Positions 2,070 through 63,821 of a DNA stretch of 64,000 nt are shown here, piece after piece. Origin of the DNA: a virus (Duplodnaviria; Caudoviricetes). The stretch's first letter is position 1; every line of letters begins with the position of its first letter. The stretch covers positions 1,205 through 65,204 of the IMG/VR virus record IMGVR_UViG_3300021376_000051; one strand, given 5' to 3'. Under the pieces are notes generated by a model. The model saw only the letters and a program-made list of their open reading frames with translations. It was not told the origin of the DNA and made no database searches. The translations under genes were made by a program, and so were the position numbers.

Positions 2070-2480
2070 TTACGTCTTATGTTCTTCTGTTCTGCCATCT
2101 TTCAAATCCGTAATCTCAACGATCATTCTCTTTGGGATTTTATTTACCTGAGCTGTTTCATCAGGACCAATAGTATTTGTTACTGCAAAATGATCTTCAT
2201 CTTCATGTAATACAAAACCAACAGTAACCATGATTGGTAGTGGAGACTTGCTAAATGATTGAGCCTTGCTCTTATCTAGCCACTCCTCACCACCTATAGT
2301 TACAGCATCAATCCAGAAGATCATAACCAAATCTGGACTTTCTTGTGGATAAATTACATTCTTAGGCAAAGAAGTATTCAGATCCGAGTACTTCTGAAAC
2401 ATCAAATTCTGCGTCTGGTTTTGGGCAGTCTGGAAGGAAGATTTGGTATCTTTCTTCTGTTTCTTTCTTGAGTTTTTCAA
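2070..2480 (-). CDS. Conserved-looking phage hypothetical protein (true start probably nearer 2370)
   Basis: W.DA...W / TVGFVLHED / IPK.MI pattern typical of small phage proteins; the annotated 5' part overlaps the RNAP gene. Confidence 0.6.
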   Translation of the reverse strand: MKNSRKKQKKDTKSSFQTAQNQTQNLMFQKYSDLNTSLPKNVIYPQESPDLVMIFWIDAVTIGGEEWLDKSKAQSFSKSPLPIMVTVGFVLHEDEDHFAVTNTIGPDETAQVNKIPKRMIVEITDLKDGRTEEHKT

Positions 2481-4797
2481 GTTGATTCTCCTTATGAATC
2501 TTTACAAACTCTTCTCTTAGAATCTTATGCATTACATCAATGTCTGTAGCATGTGTTCCATATGAATCATGGATCATAGAAAATGTATTAATACCTACAT
2601 TCATCATCCTACTGATAGACATAAACATATGTGCTGCATCTATCGCATGGATAAAGTTTGGAGAAACAGCGAGATACTGTGCTTTACCGTCGAGATCTTC
2701 CGTAACAGTTGAGAATACCAACTGCTGCCTGTTAAATAGTTCGGCATAAGAAACTCTTTCTAGTACTTCGTTGTATACATGGTGTACTTCAAACCCACTA
2801 GGAGTTGTCCATACCAATGGTTTGTTCATTCCATCTAGAACTTCAGCGACTGAACGCAACCATTCTTTACCCTTGTTTGGTGATTCCATAGTTTCACCTA
2901 GACCAGCTTGGATAGCGCGGCTAAGTTCTACTACAGCACCTCCTCTGGATTCTTTTGGAACCCAATCCACATGACCTTCTTGCTTTACATATTTCTGCAT
3001 TCCATAGAATGTAAGACCATATGCATCGCACATTGTAGGTCGTTTTGTTACAGCCCGTGGTAGTTTATTATTCCAGTTTAAAAGGAATACTTGATACCAA
3101 TTATTTTCAGGATGCTCTAGCATATACTGAGTACTAGAGTCTGCAACATACTGGTATAGATCTTCTGGTTTTTCACTGGGCAAGAGATTTGTAAGCTTTG
3201 CTAGCTTCTTGTTTCTCATAATAGCTGACCAATGTTGACCACCATTATTAGCACCATCCATTTGAATAGGAAGCTGAGTCATGCCATCCTTCCGGGCAAT
3301 TTCAAAGATTGCTGCAAGGCGTTGGAATGACTTGTTCTTTTTCTTTAGTGGATCAATCCATTCTTTATTTGAGTATGGATCTTCTGCAATACGCAGTAGC
3401 ATATCAATGTTTTCGTCTACCCACTTAACCCTATCTTCAAATGGCTTTTTGTCTTGGTCAAATAGATTTGCTAGGTGAACCTTAAGCCAGAACAAACCAC
3501 GTTCAGTTTGTTTCTTTGGCATTGCAAACTGTACAAGACCACGATCAAAATCTACTCCTTGTGGAGATAGTAACTCACACACAGAGTATGCACGACCCCT
3601 GAAGTCCAGGGTATATGGCATATAGAAGAAGTCCCAGTCTAGCATTTTCTTTGCTAGCTGTAGCCGTACAATCATTCGACTGCGGGCTTGTTCTTCTTTG
3701 TACCATTCTCCCCAAGCTTCATTGGATTCTTGCATCCATTTGGCTTGCTCTTCTTTTGCACCATCTGTAGGATATGGCCTAGTAAAAGCATAATCCTTGA
3801 ATGTAAATGCTGGTAGATTTGCAAGCTTATGATCGTTTTCAAACATAGTCTTCATAACAGAATAGACTTGTTTGTTTACTGACCATTCAGTTTCACTAAG
3901 GGCATTAAGCCCACGGAGAACAAGTTCACTTGGTTTTGAGTCCCAATCCTTGGGATCTGCACCTACTGGATGATATCTTTTAATCATCTTCTTCCGAACC
4001 CAAGGTGACAAGAAGCCACCATCTTCTTCGGTAGTGTGCTTTACAGGAGGACAGATCATTGGTCTGTAAACTAGGCAGGCAGTCTCAAGCATTTCGTGAC
4101 GCTTGCTTAGTTCTTTTAGAATCCAAGGGGCAAAACAAACCAACAATGATTTCTTGTTCTTACCATTCCAGTGTACCCGTGAGACAAGGATATCACTAGA
4201 AAGTGCAATGCGAAGCATGTTATGACCAAAGTCTTCCTTCTCTTTTGAGTTTAACTTAGGAAGCTTACCAACTTTAGTTGTAAATGCCTTGCACCGCTTT
4301 ACAGTCCAGTTTTTAATAAACTTAGACTGCCTACGCCAATCTTCTGAGAACTTCTTTTTTGCTTGTTGATAAGCAATAATTGAAATAACATCATCAGAGA
4401 TTAACTTTGATACTTGTTGGGCAACCGGAGCATTGCTTGGAATACCCATAGTATCGTCAAAGTTTTGAATTGTATTCCTGGTTAGGAATAAACGCATAAC
4501 ATTTCTGATTGTAATGTCTGCCATCTTAGCAGCACCAACACATAGAAGAGGTGCTAGCCAATCAGGCGACTTACGGTTATTACAACATTCATCAATCCAC
4601 TTCTGATAATAAGGAGTAAGATGTATGACTGCACTTTCAAGCAGAAGTTGCTCAGGCTTTCCTTCATCAACCGCACGATTGTACTCCTTCCAGTATTTTT
4701 CAATACCATTATCTAGTAGATCTTCTTCAAATAGCTTTTGATTTATAAGTCTATTGTCTCTTTGTTCTTTAGATAGTTGTAACCAAGCTGTGCTCAC
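2362..4797 (-). CDS. T7-like single-subunit DNA-directed RNA polymerase (canonical)
   Basis: LDFRGRAY; motif A DGANNGGQH; motif B RAVTKRPTMCDAYG; PNFIHAIDAAH; motif C IHDSYG; C-terminal YFFA. Confidence 0.97.
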   Translation of the reverse strand: MSTAWLQLSKEQRDNRLINQKLFEEDLLDNGIEKYWKEYNRAVDEGKPEQLLLESAVIHLTPYYQKWIDECCNNRKSPDWLAPLLCVGAAKMADITIRNVMRLFLTRNTIQNFDDTMGIPSNAPVAQQVSKLISDDVISIIAYQQAKKKFSEDWRRQSKFIKNWTVKRCKAFTTKVGKLPKLNSKEKEDFGHNMLRIALSSDILVSRVHWNGKNKKSLLVCFAPWILKELSKRHEMLETACLVYRPMICPPVKHTTEEDGGFLSPWVRKKMIKRYHPVGADPKDWDSKPSELVLRGLNALSETEWSVNKQVYSVMKTMFENDHKLANLPAFTFKDYAFTRPYPTDGAKEEQAKWMQESNEAWGEWYKEEQARSRMIVRLQLAKKMLDWDFFYMPYTLDFRGRAYSVCELLSPQGVDFDRGLVQFAMPKKQTERGLFWLKVHLANLFDQDKKPFEDRVKWVDENIDMLLRIAEDPYSNKEWIDPLKKKNKSFQRLAAIFEIARKDGMTQLPIQMDGANNGGQHWSAIMRNKKLAKLTNLLPSEKPEDLYQYVADSSTQYMLEHPENNWYQVFLLNWNNKLPRAVTKRPTMCDAYGLTFYGMQKYVKQEGHVDWVPKESRGGAVVELSRAIQAGLGETMESPNKGKEWLRSVAEVLDGMNKPLVWTTPSGFEVHHVYNEVLERVSYAELFNRQQLVFSTVTEDLDGKAQYLAVSPNFIHAIDAAHMFMSISRMMNVGINTFSMIHDSYGTHATDIDVMHKILREEFVKIHKENQLEKLKKETEERYQIFLPDCPKPDAEFDVSEVLGSEYFFA

Positions 4798-8253: not shown

Positions 8254-8703
8254 TTACCACCATCCAAGTATTACACCGTTGTTATTAGCAACGGCATTGA
8301 ACCAATCAGCAAGCATTTCTGCTTCGCTGAGATCTACACCATAGATAGATTCAGTTACCTCAAAGGCAAGGTGATCTGGGTTTTGCTTTATAAAATGGTC
8401 AACAAACTTAGTAAGCTTATCAGCCATCTTCTTAACAACTTCTTCAGGGATAACAGAAGCATACAGGGTTTGCCCTGTAACGTACTCCACATAGTCATTG
8501 TAGACTTTGCCCCTGAATGAGTTATTATTCATTGAGCAAATCCCAGAACACAACTTGTTGTTCTGAAATAGGCTGTTATCCATGACGGTGAATCCACCGT
8601 CTGAATCTCTTGTACATGCAAAGTTATCAAGTCCCATTGAAATATTCCTCACATTTGTTCTTAAAGAATTCTTCGTTGGATGAGAACAACATATGATATT
8701 CAT
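8254..8703 (-). CDS. Hypothetical phage protein (likely start MGLDN, ~8637)
   Basis: MGLD...SFRGKVY...GWW pattern common in phage early proteins. Confidence 0.65.
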   Translation of the reverse strand: MNIICCSHPTKNSLRTNVRNISMGLDNFACTRDSDGGFTVMDNSLFQNNKLCSGICSMNNNSFRGKVYNDYVEYVTGQTLYASVIPEEVVKKMADKLTKFVDHFIKQNPDHLAFEVTESIYGVDLSEAEMLADWFNAVANNNGVILGWW

Positions 8704-9143: not shown

Positions 9144-9389
9144 TTAGAATGGTAGACTGGTTGCCAAAGGCTCAGGAGCCGGCGGCGGTTCGGACTTTGG
9201 CGAGGGTCGGCTAAGCTTACCCTTGAAGGCAGGAGCCTTCGGGTGAGCAGCCCCCGAGTTATCCCACATACTGATGGGATACTTAACGCCATTGATCGTA
9301 ACATAACCATTGAGTGCAGGGCTAGCCGGGTTTTCCGAATTAACCTTCCACACATCTATCCGAATATTAGGTGCGTTTGTTTCTTGCAT
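9144..9389 (-). CDS. Small putative ssDNA-binding protein (DUF736-like)
   Basis: NPASPALNGYVTINGVKYPISMW...KAPAFKG; Pro-rich linker; C-terminal LPF. Confidence 0.6.
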   Translation of the reverse strand: MQETNAPNIRIDVWKVNSENPASPALNGYVTINGVKYPISMWDNSGAAHPKAPAFKGKLSRPSPKSEPPPAPEPLATSLPF

Positions 9390-9569: not shown

Positions 9570-10200
9570 TAACTTCTTAAAAGACATTCCACACATCTCT
9601 GCGAAGAATGCCATATTGAGGATTCCTAGTTCGACCTCAATCTTTATCAGGGGATGCCTGATAACTTTTGGCTAACTAATATGCCAAGGCTAAGGAAAAG
9701 ACAACCTAAGGGTTAGCCTAGGTTGTCCCATGTAGGTCTTTACATTATCTCTTACCAGAGTAGATATAGACCTTAGACTATCTACTCTTGGTTATCCAAT
9801 AACCGATGAAACGGTACATATTAGGGGTGTTTCATGTCCCTAACTGACTTCCGGCTTGAATTGAGTCCCCCATGTAGATCCGTCAACCTACACGGGACGC
9901 ACTATGCTTATGCTTCTATTTAACCTCGCATAGTCGAGGTATCCCTAATGCCGTGTTACCACCCTAGGATAAACGGGTGACACTTGCCTGCCTAAAGGCC
10001 GGTATAATAACCACAATGGTAGGCTTACCCATTGCTACACCCTTGCGGGGCGTTTATTACCTAGGTTTGCGGCCTAGGTAATATCCTATTAGGTTCTTCC
10101 CGTTGCAACGGTTCACCTCCTTAAGTTTGAAAGATATCCCACAGGTTTCCCCGTGGGATACCAGCTAGACTTGTTTCTAGCACGGGTGGAATGTACCACC
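9570..10200 (-). ncRNA. Large structured RNA with hairpins and tandem H-type pseudoknots
   Basis: Near-continuous stem-loops; GAAA/GCAA tetraloops and G-U pairs point to the minus strand; four hairpin loops have exact downstream complements. Confidence 0.7.
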
Positions 10201-10204
10201 TATT

Positions 10205-10321
10205 TGGCGTGGCCTGGCAGGATTCCAGCGGGTACCTGCATCATCCGATTTACGTGACCTAGCTTGGCCCTACGGGTCCTTTGATCAGATCGGTGCTTTG
10301 AATCGTTAAGCTACAGGCCAC
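10205..10321 (-). ncRNA. Aberrant tRNA-like element (8-bp acceptor stem + GCCA, expanded anticodon and T loops)
   Basis: GTGGCCTG/CAGGCCAC acceptor; GCTT/AAGC D-stem; CCGAT/ATCGG anticodon stem; GCAGG/CCTGC T-stem; encoded CCA. Confidence 0.75.
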
Positions 10322-10329
10322 AAGTGGGG

Positions 10330-10358
10330 ATTTTAACCGTGTTTTAAGCCACAGTCAA
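10330..10358 (-). promoter_or_regulatory. Sigma70-type promoter
   Basis: TTGACT-17 bp-TAAAAT; the predicted start (~10323) lies at the 5' end of the tRNA-like element. Confidence 0.75.
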
Positions 10359-10452
10359 CCACTAGTTTGTTGTCCACAATTTATTAATCCCCTATGGACG
10401 TTTGCTTGGGATACCCTAGTTGGCTTAATCCAACTACCCGGGCAGGGTTGGC

Positions 10453-10539
10453 ACCTAGAATGCCATTAGAAGCCACGGAACTGGTGACCCCTACCATGTG
10501 GGGGTTGAGACAGTGCATGACCTCTAATGGAAGCCTAGG
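10453..10539 (-). ncRNA. Long rod-like RNA hairpin
   Basis: CCATTAGAGGTCATG pairs with CGTGGCTTCTAATGG over 15 bp including G-U pairs (minus strand only), closed by CCTAGG/TCTAGG. Confidence 0.5.
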
Positions 10540-10548
10540 GGCTTGGGA

Positions 10549-10590
10549 TAAAAGCAGGGGCACCCAAGCAAGATTGCCTGGATGCCCCTG
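10549..10590 (-). terminator. Probable intrinsic terminator
   Basis: CAGGGGCATCC...GGGTGCCCCTG followed by CTTTTAT, just after the 10609 stop codon. Confidence 0.55.
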
Positions 10591-10608
10591 TTTCGTCTGT
10601 TTCCAGCA

Positions 10609-10812
10609 TTAAAGCTGGGTTTCAATCAGTCCACGGGCTTCAGCCTCGGCCAAGATCCCCTGAATCTTCGATTCGGAGGTGACCTTACCGCGCTGGACCT
10701 GGATGACCAGATTCAGCAGCTCCTTGTCGCCCAGCCGGGTGTAATCCACGGTGAGCTGCGGACGGGGGAGGGCCACAAGGGCCTTCGACGTAAAGGTGAT
10801 GTTGATGGGCAT
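10609..10812 (-). CDS. Small hypothetical early protein
   Basis: AAAGGA RBS before MPINITF; GC-rich codon usage. Confidence 0.6.
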   Translation of the reverse strand: MPINITFTSKALVALPRPQLTVDYTRLGDKELLNLVIQVQRGKVTSESKIQGILAEAEARGLIETQL

Positions 10813-11073
10813 CACCAATCCTTTCTGGGAACCACTGATGATAGTGAACATTCCCTTTGGGTCCAACATCAGCAGCCACTCGCGCGAGTGATCTTACTGA
10901 TGTAAAATCGCAAGAGTGGCGCGGAGCGAAGCGGAGTCGCCACAACGGGAGGGCAACCAAAGGCAAGCCCTGCGCTGAACGGAGCGTGTGGCTCCGTGAA
11001 GTCCGCTCTAGGGGCACTTATCCCTAGGGGATAATATTATTAGTTAATTGAACCTATGAGTCAGGTTATTGGC

Positions 11074-12963
11074 TTAGCCCATGAAGTTGCGGGAAGCCGT
11101 GAAACGATGCTCGTTGATGGGCTTCCATCCCTCCTTCCAGATCTTGTGGTTGAGGTGGACCTGGTACTGAGCCAGGTTGTTTGCAAGGCGGGGTTCGGTC
11201 ATGTACATCTTCTTGTACAGAACCTTCCACGCCATCTTGACGAAGCGCACACCCGCACAGCAAGTGCCGTGCGAGTCATGGATGGGCGAGTAGGGCAACC
11301 CCTTGATTGCCATGAGCCGAGCGATGCCCGACACATGGGCAGCATCTTCCGAATGGATCACCAACGGCGGGGCTGCCGATGCCTGCTTGATCAACTTACG
11401 CTTCATCAGCGTAACCTTGATCTTGCGGTCCCCAACCGTGAACTCCACACGGTTAGGCTTCTCGTCCTTGTCCCAGTCATGCTGGAACACGAACGACTTG
11501 GCCCCGTCATGGTGATGCCAAGTGAAGATCTGTCCTTTATCGTGTGCCTTGCTGTAGGCATCACGGACAAGGCGGATGAACTCCCGAAGCTTCGGGAACA
11601 TCCGCAACAAGGACTCATGGTACGCCTTGGAAACTTCCAAGGCATCGTCCCATGCGGTATCCAGACGATCCACCCAAACATCAACCCAGTCTGGGTTGAA
11701 TGCCTCTGGGTCCTTGGTCAACAATGCCTTGGCCTTCTTCGGGCAATAGTTATTGCCCTCTGAGATGCGGTCCCAGTCATCCCCGTCCTTGAGGATGAGG
11801 CCCTTGGCCAAGCCGCCCGGTCCTGCGCCATAACCAAGGCGCATGACAAAGTACTTGGCCTCTTCAGGGTGGAAGAACTCCAACAAGGTTCCGCCATAGC
11901 CAGCCTGTGCTGACTTGGCAACCTCCTTGTACAATGACTTCTTCCTCTTGGTGCCACCAAGGTTGGTGTACCAAGCGAGAGTTGAGTCACCGCACAACCC
12001 GGCAATCCTCTGGTATCCGTCTGAAGTACAGTCCTGCTGGAAGATGTAAGAGGTTGCCCCCGTGTCTTCCAGCTCGGCCATTGCCACGGCCAACTCAAAC
12101 CGGGAAATGATTTTGGTTACCTTGCAGCCGAACCAGTCGGCTGCACTCTTGAGATGGGCAATAGCCCCATCTCGCGGGTGGAAAGGCTGTTCCTGGGTAG
12201 GAACAAACCCTTCCTTCTCTGCCTCCGCATGGGTCATCGCCATGCGGACGCGGAAGATCAGTTCACGGTAGTTACGGGGAGTAACCCCATCCTCCTTGGC
12301 AACCGCCCAGCAAGCTGCCAAGTTTGCCGCCTTGTCTTTACCAAGGCTGTAAGCCTTGGCGTAGCCCATCAGGCTACGGACGAGCACACCGCCCATGTGG
12401 GCAAGCGTGTCGGGGAAGTAGAACCTCCTCCGCTTGAAGCAGTAGAACCTAAACACATCGGTTCCCTGCTTTTCGGCCTGTGCCACGGCCTTGAGAGCCG
12501 TGGCAAACTTGAGGCCCCCGCCCTCGGCACCGGGCATCTTCTGCCCAATGCTGTACAGGCGAGAGCTACCGAACGCCTTCAGGAATCGGAGAGCTTCCGG
12601 CCTGAAGGCGTACTGAACTCCCTGAAGGAAGTTCAGGGTGTCCGCATCTGCTGCGGACAACCCGGGCATCTCCTCCCAAACAGGAGGTTCAGCCCGGACA
12701 AGGAGCGCAGTCTTGGGCACAACCCAGATGCGCTCCGACCGATGGCCGTCATCCGTGATCACTTGCTCACGGCTGATGGCGTACTCAGGCCGCAGCAGCA
12801 GCTGCTCCACGGCCTTCTTGGCGGCAGCACCCAGCTCTGCCTCGTCGCCAAGGAACGTGCATGCGTCCTTGGCGACGGCCCAGCACCGCTGGATGGTGAG
12901 CGGGTATGTTACCCGCTGAACCAGCGCGCTGAGCATTGCACTGACAATCTTCTTATTGGTCAT
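11074..12963 (-). CDS. Second, highly divergent T7-superfamily single-subunit RNA polymerase
   Basis: Motif A QQDCTSDGYQR; motif B AKYFVMRLGYG; FTW; PPLVIHSEDAAH; motif C SPIHDSHGT; all in the correct order; GAGG RBS. Confidence 0.85.
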   Translation of the reverse strand: MTNKKIVSAMLSALVQRVTYPLTIQRCWAVAKDACTFLGDEAELGAAAKKAVEQLLLRPEYAISREQVITDDGHRSERIWVVPKTALLVRAEPPVWEEMPGLSAADADTLNFLQGVQYAFRPEALRFLKAFGSSRLYSIGQKMPGAEGGGLKFATALKAVAQAEKQGTDVFRFYCFKRRRFYFPDTLAHMGGVLVRSLMGYAKAYSLGKDKAANLAACWAVAKEDGVTPRNYRELIFRVRMAMTHAEAEKEGFVPTQEQPFHPRDGAIAHLKSAADWFGCKVTKIISRFELAVAMAELEDTGATSYIFQQDCTSDGYQRIAGLCGDSTLAWYTNLGGTKRKKSLYKEVAKSAQAGYGGTLLEFFHPEEAKYFVMRLGYGAGPGGLAKGLILKDGDDWDRISEGNNYCPKKAKALLTKDPEAFNPDWVDVWVDRLDTAWDDALEVSKAYHESLLRMFPKLREFIRLVRDAYSKAHDKGQIFTWHHHDGAKSFVFQHDWDKDEKPNRVEFTVGDRKIKVTLMKRKLIKQASAAPPLVIHSEDAAHVSGIARLMAIKGLPYSPIHDSHGTCCAGVRFVKMAWKVLYKKMYMTEPRLANNLAQYQVHLNHKIWKEGWKPINEHRFTASRNFMG

Positions 12964-12983
12964 GGTTACCTCTAAGAAAACTT

Positions 12984-13067
12984 GTGGTCATTTAAACTGT
13001 TGACCACTTGCAGTTACCCCAAAGGGGAAGCCCAAGGTAAGACACTTAAGCCTTACCTTGGGGTAGT
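12984..13067. repeat. Structured direct repeat, copy 1 (three hairpins)
   Basis: 37-bp core CCCAAGGTAAGACACTTAAGCCTTACCTTGGGGTAGT at 13031-13067 is identical to 13489-13525. Confidence 0.9.
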
Positions 13068-13088
13068 CATCGAACGCAGGAGATCAGG

Positions 13089-13439
13089 TTATCGAACGCA
13101 TGAAATCAGGCGGTCGATATTAAATGACCGCTTCTGTGGAGGCTTTGCCTGTGTGATTTCAATCCCGATCACGCACTTCCCAACCACTTCGATGACAACA
13201 AACTCGTCAAACCTCCGAAGTGAACCGTCGATCTTCATGAATCGGACTAAGTACAGCCGGTCACCAGGTTGAAAGTTGTGCCCGATGAACCAAGGCGTTG
13301 GGTTACGATTGTATCCCGCTGCCTCCTTCTCCTCGTCCGAGGTTGTGAGGAGGATGGCAATAACGCCACCCAGGATGAGGAGGACAGCCGCAAAGCAGAT
13401 GTAGAACAAGATTTCCATCTGAGTCTCGCTTTCAATCAA
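13089..13439 (-). CDS. Membrane-anchored early protein with a small SH3/WYL-like beta domain
   Basis: N-terminal TM helix; F.PGD...RF.K.DG..R...RSFNIDRL. Confidence 0.6.
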   Translation of the reverse strand: MIESETQMEILFYICFAAVLLILGGVIAILLTTSDEEKEAAGYNRNPTPWFIGHNFQPGDRLYLVRFMKIDGSLRRFDEFVVIEVVGKCVIGIEITQAKPPQKRSFNIDRLISCVR

Positions 13440-13444
13440 GGCTA

Positions 13445-13525
13445 GGCCATTTGAACTGTGGCCCTTACAGTTACCCTAAACAGGGAATCCCAAGGTAAGA
13501 CACTTAAGCCTTACCTTGGGGTAGT
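13445..13525. repeat. Structured direct repeat, copy 2
   Basis: Same 37-bp core plus covarying flanking hairpins. Confidence 0.9.
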
Positions 13526-13539
13526 ACTGCGACTATCTA

Positions 13540-14013
13540 TCAACCACCAAACGAAGAATGCTTGTGCTGAGCCGAAACAACCTTTTGATGTGGAATCACC
13601 ATATAAGGTGCTTCCACAAAACCATAAAACTTGTTAACCCACGGCGCGGGAATGCTCATCTTGTCCCATGTAACATAGGCAAAGTACCAATCCCGCATGA
13701 CCCATGTGGATGTAACCACATCCAACAGAGTAACCGCCTCCCCGTTGAACTCGACATAATCCAAGTATGGACCTTCGTCCCACACCCACCCCTTGATGTA
13801 GGTGTTATCTCCGCGAACGATCCGGTGAAGGAGTGAACGAACACTCCAACATCGTCGAACAAGGCGCACCCAGCGAACCCGCTGGTTGCGTTCGCGGCAG
13901 TGCTGCGTTTCTGACGAAACAATGGAGAGAATCAAACGAACCCACAGCTGAATGGTAACAAAGAAGTGCTTCACGATCAAACTCGCTTTCTGGTACAAAT
14001 GTACCAAATTCAA
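13540..14013 (-). CDS. Hypothetical first early protein (start uncertain)
   Basis: Longest minus-strand ORF before the repeat; aromatic-rich C-terminal half. Confidence 0.45.
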   Translation of the reverse strand: MNLVHLYQKASLIVKHFFVTIQLWVRLILSIVSSETQHCRERNQRVRWVRLVRRCWSVRSLLHRIVRGDNTYIKGWVWDEGPYLDYVEFNGEAVTLLDVVTSTWVMRDWYFAYVTWDKMSIPAPWVNKFYGFVEAPYMVIPHQKVVSAQHKHSSFGG

Positions 14014-14097
14014 GCCAAAAACCCAGGGCTACGGGGGAAAATTACCAACGATGATAATCTATCCACCCCGACGAATTTTTTTGACCCCTAAGTCGAT

Positions 14098-17000
14098 TTA
14101 CAGTAAAGCTTCTGGTGCCTGTATTGGCTGGTTAGCCTTTTGTAAATCTACGGATGTGGAAGTTTGTTGTGGTTGTGGTTGCTGTGGTTGTGGCTGTGGC
14201 AACTGTGGTTGCTGTGGTTGTGGCAATTGTGGTTGCTTAGGTTGTGGCAATTGTGGTTGCTGTAGTCTTTCCGAACTACGCTTCAAGTATTCTTCTAGAT
14301 GTCTTTTTGGGATATTGTTATATTGTGTTTCTTTTTGCAATACTGTTGGATACTCTGGGAACATTTCTCTAATTAGTGCATTTGTTGTATCTTCTACTGG
14401 TGTAGACATAGAATCTATAATTGCTGATATGTCTCCCTTGGCTCCTCTATACGAGCCTCCTGAGGTTGGCGAGCTAGTTCCCCATGCTTGTGCTACGGCT
14501 ACTCTAATTGGTAGTGAGTAACCGTTGGCAATTAGCCAAGGCCCCAATGCTTTATAAGCAGCCCAGGTTTTGGCATCCCAAGTTTCTTGTGGTGATGCAA
14601 ATGCTTCAACCATTTTGTATATATCTCTAAATTGTTGCATTAATCCAGCTTCAGCAACAGAGCTAAGCATACCACCCTGTGATCTACCAGTTGCTGCTGC
14701 TAAACTAGCATTAGCAATTAACCCTAGTATGTTATTACTAAATGCTGGATTACGCATGATGTATCTACCAATTTCGCTGATATTATCTTTTCTATTAAGT
14801 TTTTCTAGAATATCTTCATAACTTAATGTGCCTCTAGCTAAAGCAAGGACAAGATTATAAGTAAAGTCTAGTAAACTTGAAGTTGCAAGCATCATACCCA
14901 TTTTTGGAAAACTAGCTGTACTACCCCTTCTAATTATTTGCTGAGCAACAAACAAAGAAGTATATGATTTATAGAATGTTAGCAGATCGGTAGCTAGGTT
15001 ATCACTTCGTGGGGCATCTAGTGCTTTACGGACAACCATACCTCTTGTTGTGTTAAATTCTTGGAATTTAGCCATAGCTGTTTTAGCTAGACTTAGTTCA
15101 GCTAGTAATTCATTCCTAGTTAAGAATGGTCTTGGTACTGGTCCGGTTGATCTTGGTGAGGTTGAGTCTTTTAGTTCTAGTTCGACATCCATCATATCTT
15201 GGAATAGAATAACACCTCTAAATGTATTCTTTTCTGTTCTAATATATCGCAATGCCTCTAGTCTCTTGCCCTCTAGTAAACCAGATTGAATTATATATAC
15301 AGCAACTTCTTGGTCAATGAAACCTAACTTGTTTTGCCGTAGTAATTCCTTAATTTGGCCAACTGTGGTTGGTTTAATTGCAGCAGCCCTATAGGCATCT
15401 CGGAATCTATTGAGATGTCCCATTCTTTCTAGTTTAACTATTAATCTATTACCAGCAGCATCCATAGCAACTCTTACAGATTTCATTGCACTGGAGTTGG
15501 AGCGGGATCTATTTAGTTTCCATCTATCCCAGAATCCTAATTTTTCAATTAGATCTGAAGATGGATCCATAGATAAGAGATTGCTTGGTAACATTGGTGA
15601 AGTAGTTTCTTCAACAAATGATAAAGTATTTTGAGCAAGTCTTCTAATCTTTCTTTGTCTGATTGGGAAGAATTGTCTTTTTGTTCTTCCACTTGCGTCT
15701 GTTACTTTTCCTGGGAAACCAGAAGTATCTACTATAGCATTTGCCGCATTAACTATACCATCTTCTACCATATCTCTTAGGAATCTAAAGGAAGATATAA
15801 CACCAACAAACGGGTTGCTTTCTTGGAACATTTGCGACATTGTACTCATTACACCCTCTACCATATAAGTAGCTGTGTTGATATTCATACCGAATCGCAT
15901 CAATACTAATGTTTTAGCTCGGTTGTTCCAATCTGCTAGGCTTTGGCCCATGTCTGTGGTATCTCGTACTAGATTACCCTTTGTTTCTAGTAGCGCAAGT
16001 CTAAGTCTATTGATACCTTGACGCATTAAAGCGTTGTTATCAATCTTTAGGTTTCTTTCTCCACGTTGATCAAATAGGGTAATGTTTCTGCTATTGGAAT
16101 TAACTGTTTGATCATTCTCAGCTTCAAACATATCTAAGATCTGAGATATATTGAAGTATGCATTTGGAATACCTGATAGCTGCTGAACCATTTTACGTTC
16201 AATAGCATCATATGCAATCTTACCAGTACCCTTAGCCAATGTTGATAGATTTGTTTCAAACAACTTAAGCATGTTTGGGTTAGTTGATAAGAATACATCT
16301 CTGCTGGTTAGGAATACAGAATCCTGTTTAAATAGCGCAGAAGACTTTGTAACTCTATTTAGAAACTCAATGGTTAGTACATCAGATGGACCCAAGATAC
16401 CAGTCATTTCTCCAGTTAAACCATGTGGCATGTTTCTATCAGAAATACTAAAGTGTTTTCTTACGTCATCTCTTTGGAACTTAGTATTCCATCTTTCGGC
16501 TGTTTTTTCATCTGTAGGAATTAAGAATGCTTTCTTAAAAGCTAGTACAACCATATCCATATTTTGGGTTGTCATCCCACCAAATGTTTTTTCTAAAGTA
16601 ACATCACCATCTCTAGTTTGCCATAGTATTTTATGAATTATTTCCTGCACATCTTTATGGATTCTAACTAAAGATTGTGTAGAAGCATAATCGGCTACTG
16701 TTGTAATACCTGTTCTACCGATTGATTTTTTTGCAGCTGTTCTTACAGCCCAATTTATAATTGCTTCTCTACCACCATTAGCAATAGTATCCTTACCGGA
16801 AATAATATCAGCCACAACCTTGCTTAAAGATGCTTCATCTGCTACTAGCATTTCTTCTGGATTTAGTGGAATTATTCCAGAAGTATATCCTAGTAATGGA
16901 GAGAATGTTGCATACTTTCCATTAGCATCTAACATTGCTATATTCTTACTAACTAGTTCCTTTTTAATTATATCAAACGCATCTCTAGCTAGGTTACGAT

Positions 17001-63439: not shown

Positions 63440-63512
63440 TGCCCCCAGTAGGGATCGAACCTACGACCTATTGATTAAAAGTCAACTGCTCTACCAGCTG
63501 AGCTATAGGGGC
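63440..63512 (-). tRNA. tRNA-Lys(TTT)
   Basis: GCCCCTA acceptor; TAGCTCAG; loop CT-TTT-AA; GGTTCGATCC; CCA not encoded. Confidence 0.92.
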
Positions 63513-63515
63513 GTA

Positions 63516-63599
63516 TGACTCCGGGGGGAATTGAACCCCCACGCCGTTTAAGGCGGCAGATTTTAAGTCTGCTGCGTCTGCCTGTTCCGCCACGAAGCC
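63516..63599 (-). tRNA. tRNA-Leu(TAA)
   Basis: GCAGA CT-TAA-AA TCTGC anticodon arm; long variable arm; GGTTCAATTCC. Confidence 0.9.
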
Positions 63600-63606
63600 C
63601 TGTATA

Positions 63607-63720
63607 TTACTTCTTTAAACGCTTTATTTGTTTGTATGTAACATAAATGTAACTAATAACAGCAACATTTGCTAGTAACAAAATAACTATAGAGGTTTGA
63701 AGAAAAGTTACTTCATCCAT
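63607..63720 (-). CDS. 37-aa single-TM peptide between tRNAs
   Basis: AAGGA RBS; MDEVTFLQTSIVILLLANVAVISYIYVTYKQIKRLKK. Confidence 0.45.
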   Translation of the reverse strand: MDEVTFLQTSIVILLLANVAVISYIYVTYKQIKRLKK

Positions 63721-63747
63721 TAGTTTTTTCCTTTCCTTTTGGTTAAA

Positions 63748-63821
63748 CATCCCCAGCTGGACTTGAACCAGCAACCTACAGCTTAGAAGGCTGTTGCTCT
63801 ATCCAGTTGAGCTATGGAGAT
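63748..63821 (-). tRNA. tRNA-Arg(TCT)
   Basis: ACAGC CT-TCT-AA GCTGT anticodon arm; GGTTCAAGTCC. Confidence 0.92.

Follow-up and report, generated by a model that had tools for sequence, protein, structure and literature searches.

A compact, fast-diverging T7-family RNA polymerase encoded alongside a canonical enzyme in uncultured aquatic T7-like phages

In the textbook picture a T7-like phage relies on one self-sufficient RNA polymerase (RNAP); in the T7 enzyme, the AT-rich recognition loop and the intercalating hairpin lie within residues 1-307. Truncated relatives need assistance: N4 RNAPII, made of subunits of 269 and 404 amino acids (aa), can bind DNA only when it is single-stranded and requires gp1 and gp2, and mitochondrial RNAPs are factor-dependent for initiation, as set out in the sections of PMC4496689 that deal with these enzymes (for the latter, its Table 1). 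PMC3821669 deals with N4-like phages and has no bearing on a compact second polymerase. Here we analyse a 64,000-nucleotide stretch of a tailed-phage genome (bases 1205-65204 of the 65,204-bp IMG/VR record IMGVR_UViG_3300021376_000051, estimated to be 96% complete), which we call the window. A gene at positions 11074 to 12963 encodes a 629-aa protein, P0001, that a first-pass annotation of the letters had taken for a second, minimal and highly divergent member of the T7 RNAP superfamily. We confirm that P0001 is a T7-family single-subunit RNA polymerase with a confident polymerase fold, and find that this compact enzyme is a hallmark of a clade of uncultured T7-like aquatic phages of about 60-70 kb in which a canonical enzyme of about 810 aa is always present. 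We found no description in the literature of a second compact polymerase in T7-like phages, including under the name of the MedDCM record discussed below, and the arrangement is apparently new to it. The parts of the gene and of its product to which we refer are as follows.

11074..12963, minus strand: compact single-subunit RNA polymerase gene (P0001), an open reading frame (ORF) of 629 aa with an ATG start
12676..12963, minus strand: predicted N-terminal domain, residues 1-96, three helices and a beta-hairpin (DSSP of the model)
12415..12444, minus strand: variant of the DxRGRxY (DX2GR) element, YCFKRRRFYF, residues 174-183; R180 and Y182 kept, Asp lost
12007..12051, minus strand: motif A, residues 305-319, SYIFQQDCTSDGYQR, with catalytic D311; D311 and G316 invariant
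11821..11868, minus strand: motif B, residues 366-381, with K370 and Y378, and P366 at the position of T7 R627 (family alignment, hhalign)
11263..11376, minus strand: residues 530-567, AAPPLVIHSEDAAH (H537, D540) plus motif C, IHDSHGT (H562, D563); the best Pfam stretch

The gene begins at an ATG with a GAGG Shine-Dalgarno sequence 7 nucleotides (nt) to its 5' side. Its product matches the Pfam family RNA_pol, PF00940, with an E-value of 2.5e-12 (46.8 bits, against a cut-off of 22), and PHROG 414, 'RNA polymerase', with an E-value of 6.7e-20 across residues 287-605. When the 24-member family alignment (homologues 18-30% identical to P0001, with two closer) was compared with T7 RNAP by hhalign, residues 97-587 of P0001 were placed on T7 residues 308-836 with Prob 99.7 and E 1.3e-26. 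An AlphaFold2 model of P0001 built from 24 homologues reached a predicted local distance difference test score (pLDDT) of 87.6 and a predicted template modelling score (pTM) of 0.87. Foldseek placed this model on mitochondrial and T7 RNAPs with E-values of 1.6e-17 to 1e-13 and query-normalised TM-scores (TMq) of 0.5-0.57, and on phage RNAPs in BFVD with a best E-value of 5.5e-18. The claim of a second T7-superfamily polymerase is thus borne out by sequence family, profile and fold alike. P0001 is a real DNA-dependent RNA polymerase, kept by selection and most likely catalytically active.

The same annotation had named equivalents of T7 D537, K631, Y639, H784, H811 and D812, and hhalign shows every one of these assignments to be correct: they are D311, K370, Y378, H537, H562 and D563 of P0001. 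Eight residues (R180, D311, G316, K370, Y378, D540, D563 and G566) are invariant in 24/24 sequences of the family, the two catalytic aspartates on which the proposal had been made to depend among them; H537 and H562 reach 90% conservation or more. That D311 and D563 converge in space is suggested only indirectly, from the way Foldseek and hhalign superpose P0001 on the RNAPs of T7 and of mitochondria. In T7, Y639 selects ribonucleoside triphosphates and R627 contacts the incoming nucleoside triphosphate (NTP). The predicted replacement of DxRGRxY by FKRRRFY (residues 176-182) was also right, in both the hhalign and the family alignment: R180 and Y182 correspond to T7 R425 and Y427, and F176 stands at T7 D421. 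The canonical DxRGRxY is found in P0017-P0019, and several of the distant family members that have the motif B arginine carry it too. The absence of the motif B arginine held for P0001 itself, where Pro366 takes its place, and not for the family as a whole. The position is Pro in P0001 and P0002, Leu in P0003 and Lys in P0004 and P0005, and many distant members, for example P0006-P0012, have Arg with the R-x-x-x-K spacing kept. In this alignment, loss of the R627 equivalent is specific to the subclade of P0001-P0003.

For the N-terminus the first-pass annotation needs refinement. It had most of the promoter-binding region missing, and indeed hhalign aligned no counterpart of T7 residues 1-307 in P0001, nor did Pfam give a match of P0001 to PF14700, a family that the 811-aa paralogue from the same phage matches below the cut-off (E 1.6e-6, 28.2 bits against 30.1). 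The place is not empty, however: a different domain of about 96 residues stands where T7 has its promoter-binding domain of about 300 aa, with helices assigned by DSSP to residues 3-17, 24-34 and 41-57 of the model and strands to 61-69 and 75-83. The Atlas structural neighbours of residues 1-96 are winged-helix families (TM-score 0.5-0.62), which we take only as a lead that the domain may be winged-helix-like. This protein of about 70 kDa keeps the palm, the fingers, a shortened thumb and a short hairpin resembling the specificity loop (residues ~504-524); the alignment to T7 shows the thumb and one fingers insertion to be shortened.

Compared with the RNAPs of T7 and other Autographiviridae (PDB 1s76, 3e2e and 8dh4), P0001 has the same palm and fingers fold, the same catalytic residues, a single polypeptide and a T7-like phage as its source. 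It differs from T7 RNAP in length (629 aa against 883 aa), in having no counterpart of residues 1-307, of R627 or of D421, in its shorter thumb and fingers insertion, and in coexisting with a canonical enzyme. It is a T7-family single-subunit RNAP without two of the usual features, the N-terminal domain and R627. Mitochondrial RNAPs (POLRMT, Rpo41) supply its best PDB sequence matches (E 0.036) and its best Foldseek match in the PDB (6erp, E 1.6e-17), but they are cellular enzymes of about 1000-1260 aa with large N-terminal extensions and only 13-17% identity. A size near 600 aa is not unprecedented, since BFVD contains short phage RNAPs from Escherichia phage phiEcoM-GJ1 (648 aa), vB_EcoP_KAW1A4500 (599 aa) and the uncultured Mediterranean phage MedDCM-OCT-S08-C159 (a 'fragment' of 584 aa); in Foldseek these match P0001 with TMq 0.53-0.59 and E 5.7e-16 to 9.7e-14 and are only 15% identical to it.

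N4 RNAPII is the best functional analogy, being likewise a T7-like enzyme pared to a minimum, with its N-terminal part cut short and its genes among the early ones. It is nevertheless a heterodimer whose two separately encoded chains divide after the DX2GR region, whereas P0001 is a single 629-aa chain, and the profile comparison proposed in the first-pass annotation places the compact family nearer to T7 RNAP (Prob 99.7) than to N4 gp16 (Prob 96.4) or gp15 (Prob 92.5), the N4 alignments running across gp16 residues 6-151 and gp15 residues 162-268. With PHROG 2051, P0001 gives an E-value of 9.2e-6 against 3.9e-33 for its long paralogue. Sequence and profile comparisons detected no N4-type virion RNAP in the window, and N4 uses the host polymerase late, where this phage has a canonical T7-type enzyme. 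P0001 does not belong to the N4 RNAPII group.

The second half of our main finding is the constant company of the canonical enzyme, for which two neighbouring genes need to be introduced.

2362..4797, minus strand: canonical T7-like RNA polymerase, 811 aa, 6.3 kb downstream of the P0001 gene
14098-26616, minus strand: giant virion-module protein, 4172 aa, directly upstream of the GC-rich block that contains the P0001 gene

The 811-aa enzyme matches PF00940 with an E-value of 5.5e-85 and PHROG 414 with an E-value of 1.7e-162, and is 29% identical to Autographiviridae RNAPs. Among the related IMG/VR records tested, 5/5 carry both an 809-823-aa frame (262-280 bits) and a frame of about 595-629 aa matching PF00940, on one strand. 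A long gene (809-834 aa) begins 5.3-8.8 kb downstream of its short companion in 10 of 15 related loci, and the other five loci end before that distance. As in the window, the genes run from the one for the giant virion protein through the short polymerase, a set of small genes and the gene of a conserved 333-aa protein to the long polymerase. A giant homologue was present in the flank in 8/15 loci, and in all 8, as in the window, its gene lies directly upstream of the block.

The two enzymes are not recent copies of each other. BLASTP of P0001 against the 811-aa RNAP gave only two local matches, with E-values of 4e-6 and 4e-5, around motifs A and C, which argues against a recent duplication, as the first-pass annotation had also held. 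In a maximum-likelihood tree of 49 rows (34 short enzymes, 11 long enzymes from the same phages and 4 from cultured phages including T7, with none left out), the short enzymes are split from all 15 long enzymes by a branch with a Shimodaira-Hasegawa-like approximate likelihood-ratio (SH-aLRT) value of 100. The short and long halves of the tree show the same major sub-groups, consistent with long co-inheritance.

The family is known from metagenomes only. A HMMER search of 1.84 billion representative proteins returned 45 at E <= 1e-3 and 19 at E <= 1e-10, nearly all of 570-660 aa, and these 45 representative clusters have exclusively metagenomic members (JGI, ENA, Logan, Tara) on contigs of up to 58-72 kb, labelled 'hypothetical protein' or with generic RNA polymerase names only. 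A word-indexed search found only two close relatives, with 94% and 52% identity. The window itself is present in lake and freshwater DNA metagenomes (15 studies, 24 runs). In 50,697 GenBank phage records, tblastn of P0001 found nothing, and for P0006, P0010 and P0018 the best places listed were 21-26.5% identical and lay on annotated RNAP genes, so that none of the four has a close relative there. Pattern scans of 185,579 prokaryote genomes found no family member, and scans of viral contigs with P0001 and with A1 found no relative.

Comparison with a metagenome contig that is 93.7% identical to the window (L003) gave a ratio of non-synonymous to synonymous substitution rates (dN/dS) of 0.115 at a synonymous divergence (dS) of 0.27. 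Neighbouring genes in the same comparison have dN/dS of 0.09-0.19, and the P0001 gene is, by this measure, which the first-pass annotation had called for, under purifying selection. Across 55 genome pairs, the short enzymes are typically 25-35% identical where the long ones are 32-91% identical, for example 29% versus 80% between the window and locus L009 and 27% versus 65% between the window and L005. The short enzyme thus diverges far faster than the canonical one. A few pairs show the opposite trend: the short genes of L012, L014 and L016 are more alike than their long genes (90% against 78% for L014 and L016). The value of dS also changes along the block between the window and L003, from 0.09 at the end of the giant gene to 0.66 in the 157-aa ORF, 0.56 in the 116-aa ORF, 0.27 in the polymerase gene and 0.03 in the 86-aa ORF (these small ORFs are listed below). 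Reversed pairs and uneven dS indicate that recombination also shuffles the region, and suggest recent recombination patches within the block.

All long ORFs of the window lie on the minus strand, and its modules, identified by PHROG and Pfam matches, are in a T7-like order when read from high to low coordinates. The series starts with tRNAs, primase-helicase, DNA polymerase, exonuclease and ribonucleotide reductase; it continues with portal, capsid, tail proteins, fibre, terminase and then proteins of 1326, 1138 and 4172 aa without a family match; and it ends with the GC-rich block, small ORFs, thymidylate synthase and the canonical 811-aa RNA polymerase. Terminal repeats are absent from the record. 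The compact polymerase is the largest gene of the GC-rich block, which contains three further ORFs.

9862..14097, minus strand: GC-rich block, 54% GC against 39-41% on both sides
13540..14013, minus strand: 157-aa ORF, start codon uncertain, first ORF of the block; GC at third codon positions (GC3) 0.56, dN/dS 0.19
13089..13439, minus strand: 116-aa ORF with a hydrophobic N-terminal helix; GC3 0.62, dN/dS 0.19 against L003
10609..10869, minus strand: 86-aa ORF 3' of the P0001 gene, coding status doubtful; GC3 0.74
63440..63821, minus strand: phage tRNAs Lys(UUU), Leu(UAA) and Arg(UCU)

None of the three smaller ORFs has a Pfam or PHROG family match. The 86-aa ORF has a dN/dS of 0.8 against L003 from very few changes (dS 0.033), and may be non-coding. 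Downstream of the block, an 81-aa ORF (9144-9389, minus strand) weakly matches a phage single-strand DNA-binding protein family, phrog_18154 (E 0.005), and is kept in the same place in L003, L009 and L010; it is a candidate, by this match, for a helper of a polymerase that might need melted DNA.

The GC shift falls mainly on third codon positions, with GC3 of 0.73 in the polymerase gene, 0.56-0.74 in the other ORFs of the block and 0.18-0.46 elsewhere, except for the 81-aa ORF (0.50). In 14/17 related loci the short gene exceeds its flanks by 5 GC points or more, the exceptions being L017, L019 (lower) and L021 (+2). Because the block is kept in these loci although their polymerases are barely 30% identical, it is a maintained property and not a recent import. 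Codon choice follows the same boundary. In the four ORFs of the block AAA makes up 7% of Lys codons, TTA 1% of Leu codons and AGA 0/62 Arg codons, against 52%, 29% and 61% in 14 other genes, and AAA, TTA and AGA are exactly the codons read by the phage tRNAs. The same avoidance is seen in 11/12 relatives (L019 is the exception), and in most of the seven relatives with a value for the giant gene these codons are used least in the short gene and more in the long and the giant one. We read the avoidance of phage-tRNA codons as a sign of genes built for translation by a naive host, before phage tRNAs are made; such genes would be immediate-early. The tRNAs of the relatives are of the same kinds plus Ile-UAU. 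In two relatives without a pistol ribozyme (described below), a cluster of tRNAs (Ile-UAU, Arg-UCU, Lys-UUU, Leu-UAA) lies 3' of the GC-rich block, at 13869-14323 in L005 and 13198-14544 in L007, starting about 2.1 kb and 1.4 kb downstream of the short polymerase, respectively.

The block also holds a set of predicted RNA elements, listed here in the direction of reading.

13445..13526, minus strand: hairpin cassette copy 1, 5' of the 116-aa ORF; fold -39.3 kcal/mol, z -4.1
12986..13067, minus strand: hairpin cassette copy 2, directly 5' of the polymerase gene; fold -43.5 kcal/mol, z -4.7
10555..10590, minus strand: terminator-like hairpin, 16 pairs plus a T-rich tail
9940..10554, minus strand: ORF-poor structured stretch, about 50% GC, no ORF of 70 aa or more
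9862..9939, minus strand (the coding strand): predicted pistol self-cleaving ribozyme, RF02679; 43.8 bits, gathering score 34.5

The cassette is about 80 nt long and folds into three hairpins, a 13-bp perfect stem with a 6-nt loop followed by two smaller ones; its 43-nt core is 98% identical between the copies, which are the only two in the window. Repeated cassettes unrelated in sequence occupy the same place in relatives: L005 has four copies, and L010, L011 and L012 have two apiece. That the polymerase gene lies just upstream of a non-coding RNA locus, as had been proposed, is supported by the ORF-poor structured stretch at about 10554-9940, at the end of which the pistol lies. The match to the pistol model is full-length (positions 1-68 of 68). 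Pistols are also found on the same strand in L003, L009, L010 and L011, 1.15-1.3 kb downstream of the short polymerase as in the window, that is, in 5/19 sources. In 5/5 loci with a pistol it is the 3' edge of the GC-rich block, and GC falls by about 6-13 points past it (in the window, from about 50-56% to about 40%). The interval between polymerase and pistol is mostly coding in L009-L011 and ORF-poor in the window. Pistol RNAs are described as phage-associated in the part of PMC4604425 that concerns them; ours fit the same covariance model and the same association, and differ in having a fixed place, the 3' edge of the block, in five loci. Between 8500 and 14500, the only RNA families at E <= 1 were the pistol and one chance-level snoRNA match, and no hammerhead or other ribozyme besides the pistol reached its gathering score in the window and 18 related loci.

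The ORF-poor stretch is hypervariable, since window positions 9939-10326 are not collinear with L003 7558-8159, where about 600 nt of other sequence, with pieces of 75 nt and 35 nt in common, are set between flanks that are 93% identical. The best sigma-70-like match of the region, TTGACT-17-TAAAAT (10/12), lies inside this stretch at 10330-10358 (minus strand), directed towards a part that the first-pass annotation had called tRNA-like.

The gene directly upstream of the block encodes the 4172-aa protein, which carries the signature of a DnaQ-like exonuclease around residue 680 (Pfam RNase_H_2, below the cut-off at E 0.051) and a Gln/Pro-rich repeat at its C-terminus. We found no Pfam, PHROG or PDB sequence match of this protein to any RNAP or N4 virion RNAP (vRNAP) family, and its family profiles gave Prob 0.3-0.4 against the N4 mini-vRNAP and 0.2-0.5 against the short-RNAP family in hhalign. 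An AlphaFold2 model of residues 1101-2300 from 15 sequences was poor (pLDDT 52, pTM 0.33), so the lack of a Foldseek match at E <= 0.001 is no evidence either way. The giant family has an invariant K-x7-Y-x2-G at residues 1486-1497 resembling polymerase motif B, and the language-model neighbours of residues 1151-2300 are PF00940 clusters (0.87; 176 and 166 shared features) and N4 vRNAP clusters (0.85). These neighbours are a lead only towards a polymerase module in the giant protein.

How might such an enzyme be used? Our preferred reading, tentative and to be given a probability of roughly 0.45, is that the compact enzyme is the phage's first transcriptase, dependent on a helper, after which the canonical enzyme takes over. 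The GC-rich block, 4-5 kb long in this clade and at the head of the early region, would be expressed first, presumably by the host polymerase. The known truncated enzymes, those of N4 and of mitochondria, need factors to initiate; lacking a T7-type N-terminal domain, the compact enzyme is likewise unlikely to initiate unaided. It would be unable alone to recognise and melt a duplex promoter and would need either a helper protein or a pre-structured promoter. With that help its targets would be the next early and middle genes (those for tRNAs, for nucleotide metabolism and for the canonical polymerase), after which replication and late genes would fall to the canonical enzyme. In the subclade of P0001, the pistol would free the block transcript at its 3' end.

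Several observations weigh against this proposal. The R627 equivalent is Pro in P0001 and the Asp of DxRGRxY is lost, so its activity could be altered, and divergence this much faster than that of the long enzyme is unusual for a core transcription enzyme. The codon pattern is inseparable from the GC3 shift, which could have a mutational or recombinational cause. No sigma-70-like promoter was found at the head of the block, though the host is not known, and no repeated promoter-like motif was found in the window, either as 18-mers in at least 3 intergenic segments or as exact 9-12-mers. Clustering of ORFs by BLASTP over 15 loci and the window gave no small neighbour common to the family that could serve as the helper. 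Finally, the sequencing runs in which the stretch was found are all DNA (24/24), with no RNA run among them.

A bolder form of the relay, in which it is launched largely without the host polymerase from a host-codon-adapted, ribozyme-terminated cassette of immediate-early genes and the small N-terminal domain reads lineage-specific hairpin promoters, strikes us as rather unlikely. If it were true, the fast divergence would reflect co-evolution of polymerase and promoter or an arms race with host defences, and nature would have supplied, in this family, a whole collection of compact RNA polymerases that are orthogonal to one another. Unlikely as well is a self-contained arrangement in which the compact enzyme transcribes mainly its own block from the hairpin cassettes, yielding large amounts of the RNAs or small proteins encoded there, with the pistol as a built-in maker of 3' ends and the private promoters co-evolving with the enzyme. 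The structured, lineage-specific cassettes are repeated before the ORFs of the block and nowhere else in 64 kb, the pistol marks the 3' edge of the block wherever it occurs (5/5), and the gap between 29% short and 80% long identity would fit private promoters; yet a polymerase that transcribes itself needs another polymerase as a starter, the interval between polymerase and ribozyme is not conserved, the pistol is present in only 5/19 sources, and the hairpins could equally be RNase III-type processing sites or stabilisers of mRNA, both of which occur between the early genes of T7. We give somewhat less credence to a three-polymerase cascade in the style of N4, in which the 4172-aa protein would carry an injected RNAP that starts at the hairpins of the block, the compact enzyme would play the part of RNAPII and the canonical one would stand in for the host polymerase at the late genes. 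Early promoters of N4 have a stem of 5-7 bp and a loop of 3 nt, unlike the 13-bp stem and 6-nt loop of the cassette, sequence and profile comparisons of the giant protein with RNAPs were negative (hhalign Prob <= 0.5), and the short family is nearer to T7 RNAP than to gp16 and gp15. What speaks for the cascade is its overall logic, which is that of N4 in the parts of PMC4496689 concerned, together with the adjacent giant gene, the cassettes before the first genes, the invariant K-x7-Y-x2-G and, as a lead only, the language-model neighbours (0.87 and 0.85).

The remaining explanations take the enzyme out of early transcription or the gene out of the phage's own heritage. T7 RNAP serves in T7 both for the priming of replication and for genome entry, and an improbable alternative is that the compact enzyme is kept for such auxiliary RNA synthesis, priming DNA replication at an origin or acting as a motor for genome entry. 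Such uses, and those on ssDNA, hairpin or RNA templates that the first-pass annotation had also suggested, are speculative. The gene of the compact enzyme follows the last virion gene, at what is presumed to be the leading end of the genome, and 65 kb is long for a T7-like phage; against this, the phage has a primase-helicase of its own, pulling of the genome needs promoters and none were found, and the entering end is without direct evidence because the record has no terminal repeats. That the polymerase is crippled or repurposed, binding nucleic acid or the canonical polymerase and making RNA inefficiently, would account for P366 in place of R627, F176 in place of D421 and the very fast divergence. 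We regard it as quite improbable, as the other metal-binding and NTP-contacting residues are invariant in a family of about 20-30% identity, which is not expected of a dead enzyme, dN/dS is 0.115, and in sister members Lys or Arg fills the position of R627. Least probable, to our mind, is that the gene is foreign, or part of a mobile cassette, and came in recently from a GC-rich donor. The 15-point jump in GC with its sharp edges, the range of dS along the block (0.03-0.66), the short genes of L012, L014 and L016 that are more alike than the long ones and the 27-nt repeat flanking the block in L009 would suit such an origin. However, the block is at the same place in 14/17 loci whose short polymerases are only about 25-35% identical, the major groupings recur in the trees of short and long enzymes, the scans of 185,579 prokaryote genomes turned up no member, and the window has no flanking repeats.

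A widespread aquatic clade that pairs a canonical with a minimal, fast-diverging enzyme would add a new strategy of transcription between the T7 and N4 paradigms. P0001 would at the same time be a natural experiment on a minimal T7 polymerase, with no N-terminal domain of the T7 type, a short thumb and no Arg627, and the roughly 45 sequence clusters are a pool of compact polymerases that could possibly serve as orthogonal expression tools. The codon avoidance of the GC-rich block would be a rare case, open to direct test, in which codon usage follows the time at which phage genes are expressed, and a pistol fixed at the edge of the block offers a concrete setting for the natural role of this ribozyme class.

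The edges of the block have features of their own. In the window no direct repeats above chance flank it. In L009, a 27-nt direct repeat with 85% identity (8526-8552 and 13028-13054), of which the window has no equivalent, brackets the GC-rich block, one copy immediately past the stop codon of the giant gene and the other immediately past the pistol. Around that stop codon, the window (14082-14098, minus strand) and L009 (8443-8460) share some 17 nt of near-identical sequence, and the sequences downstream of them differ; this stop-codon element is present in a single copy in the window.

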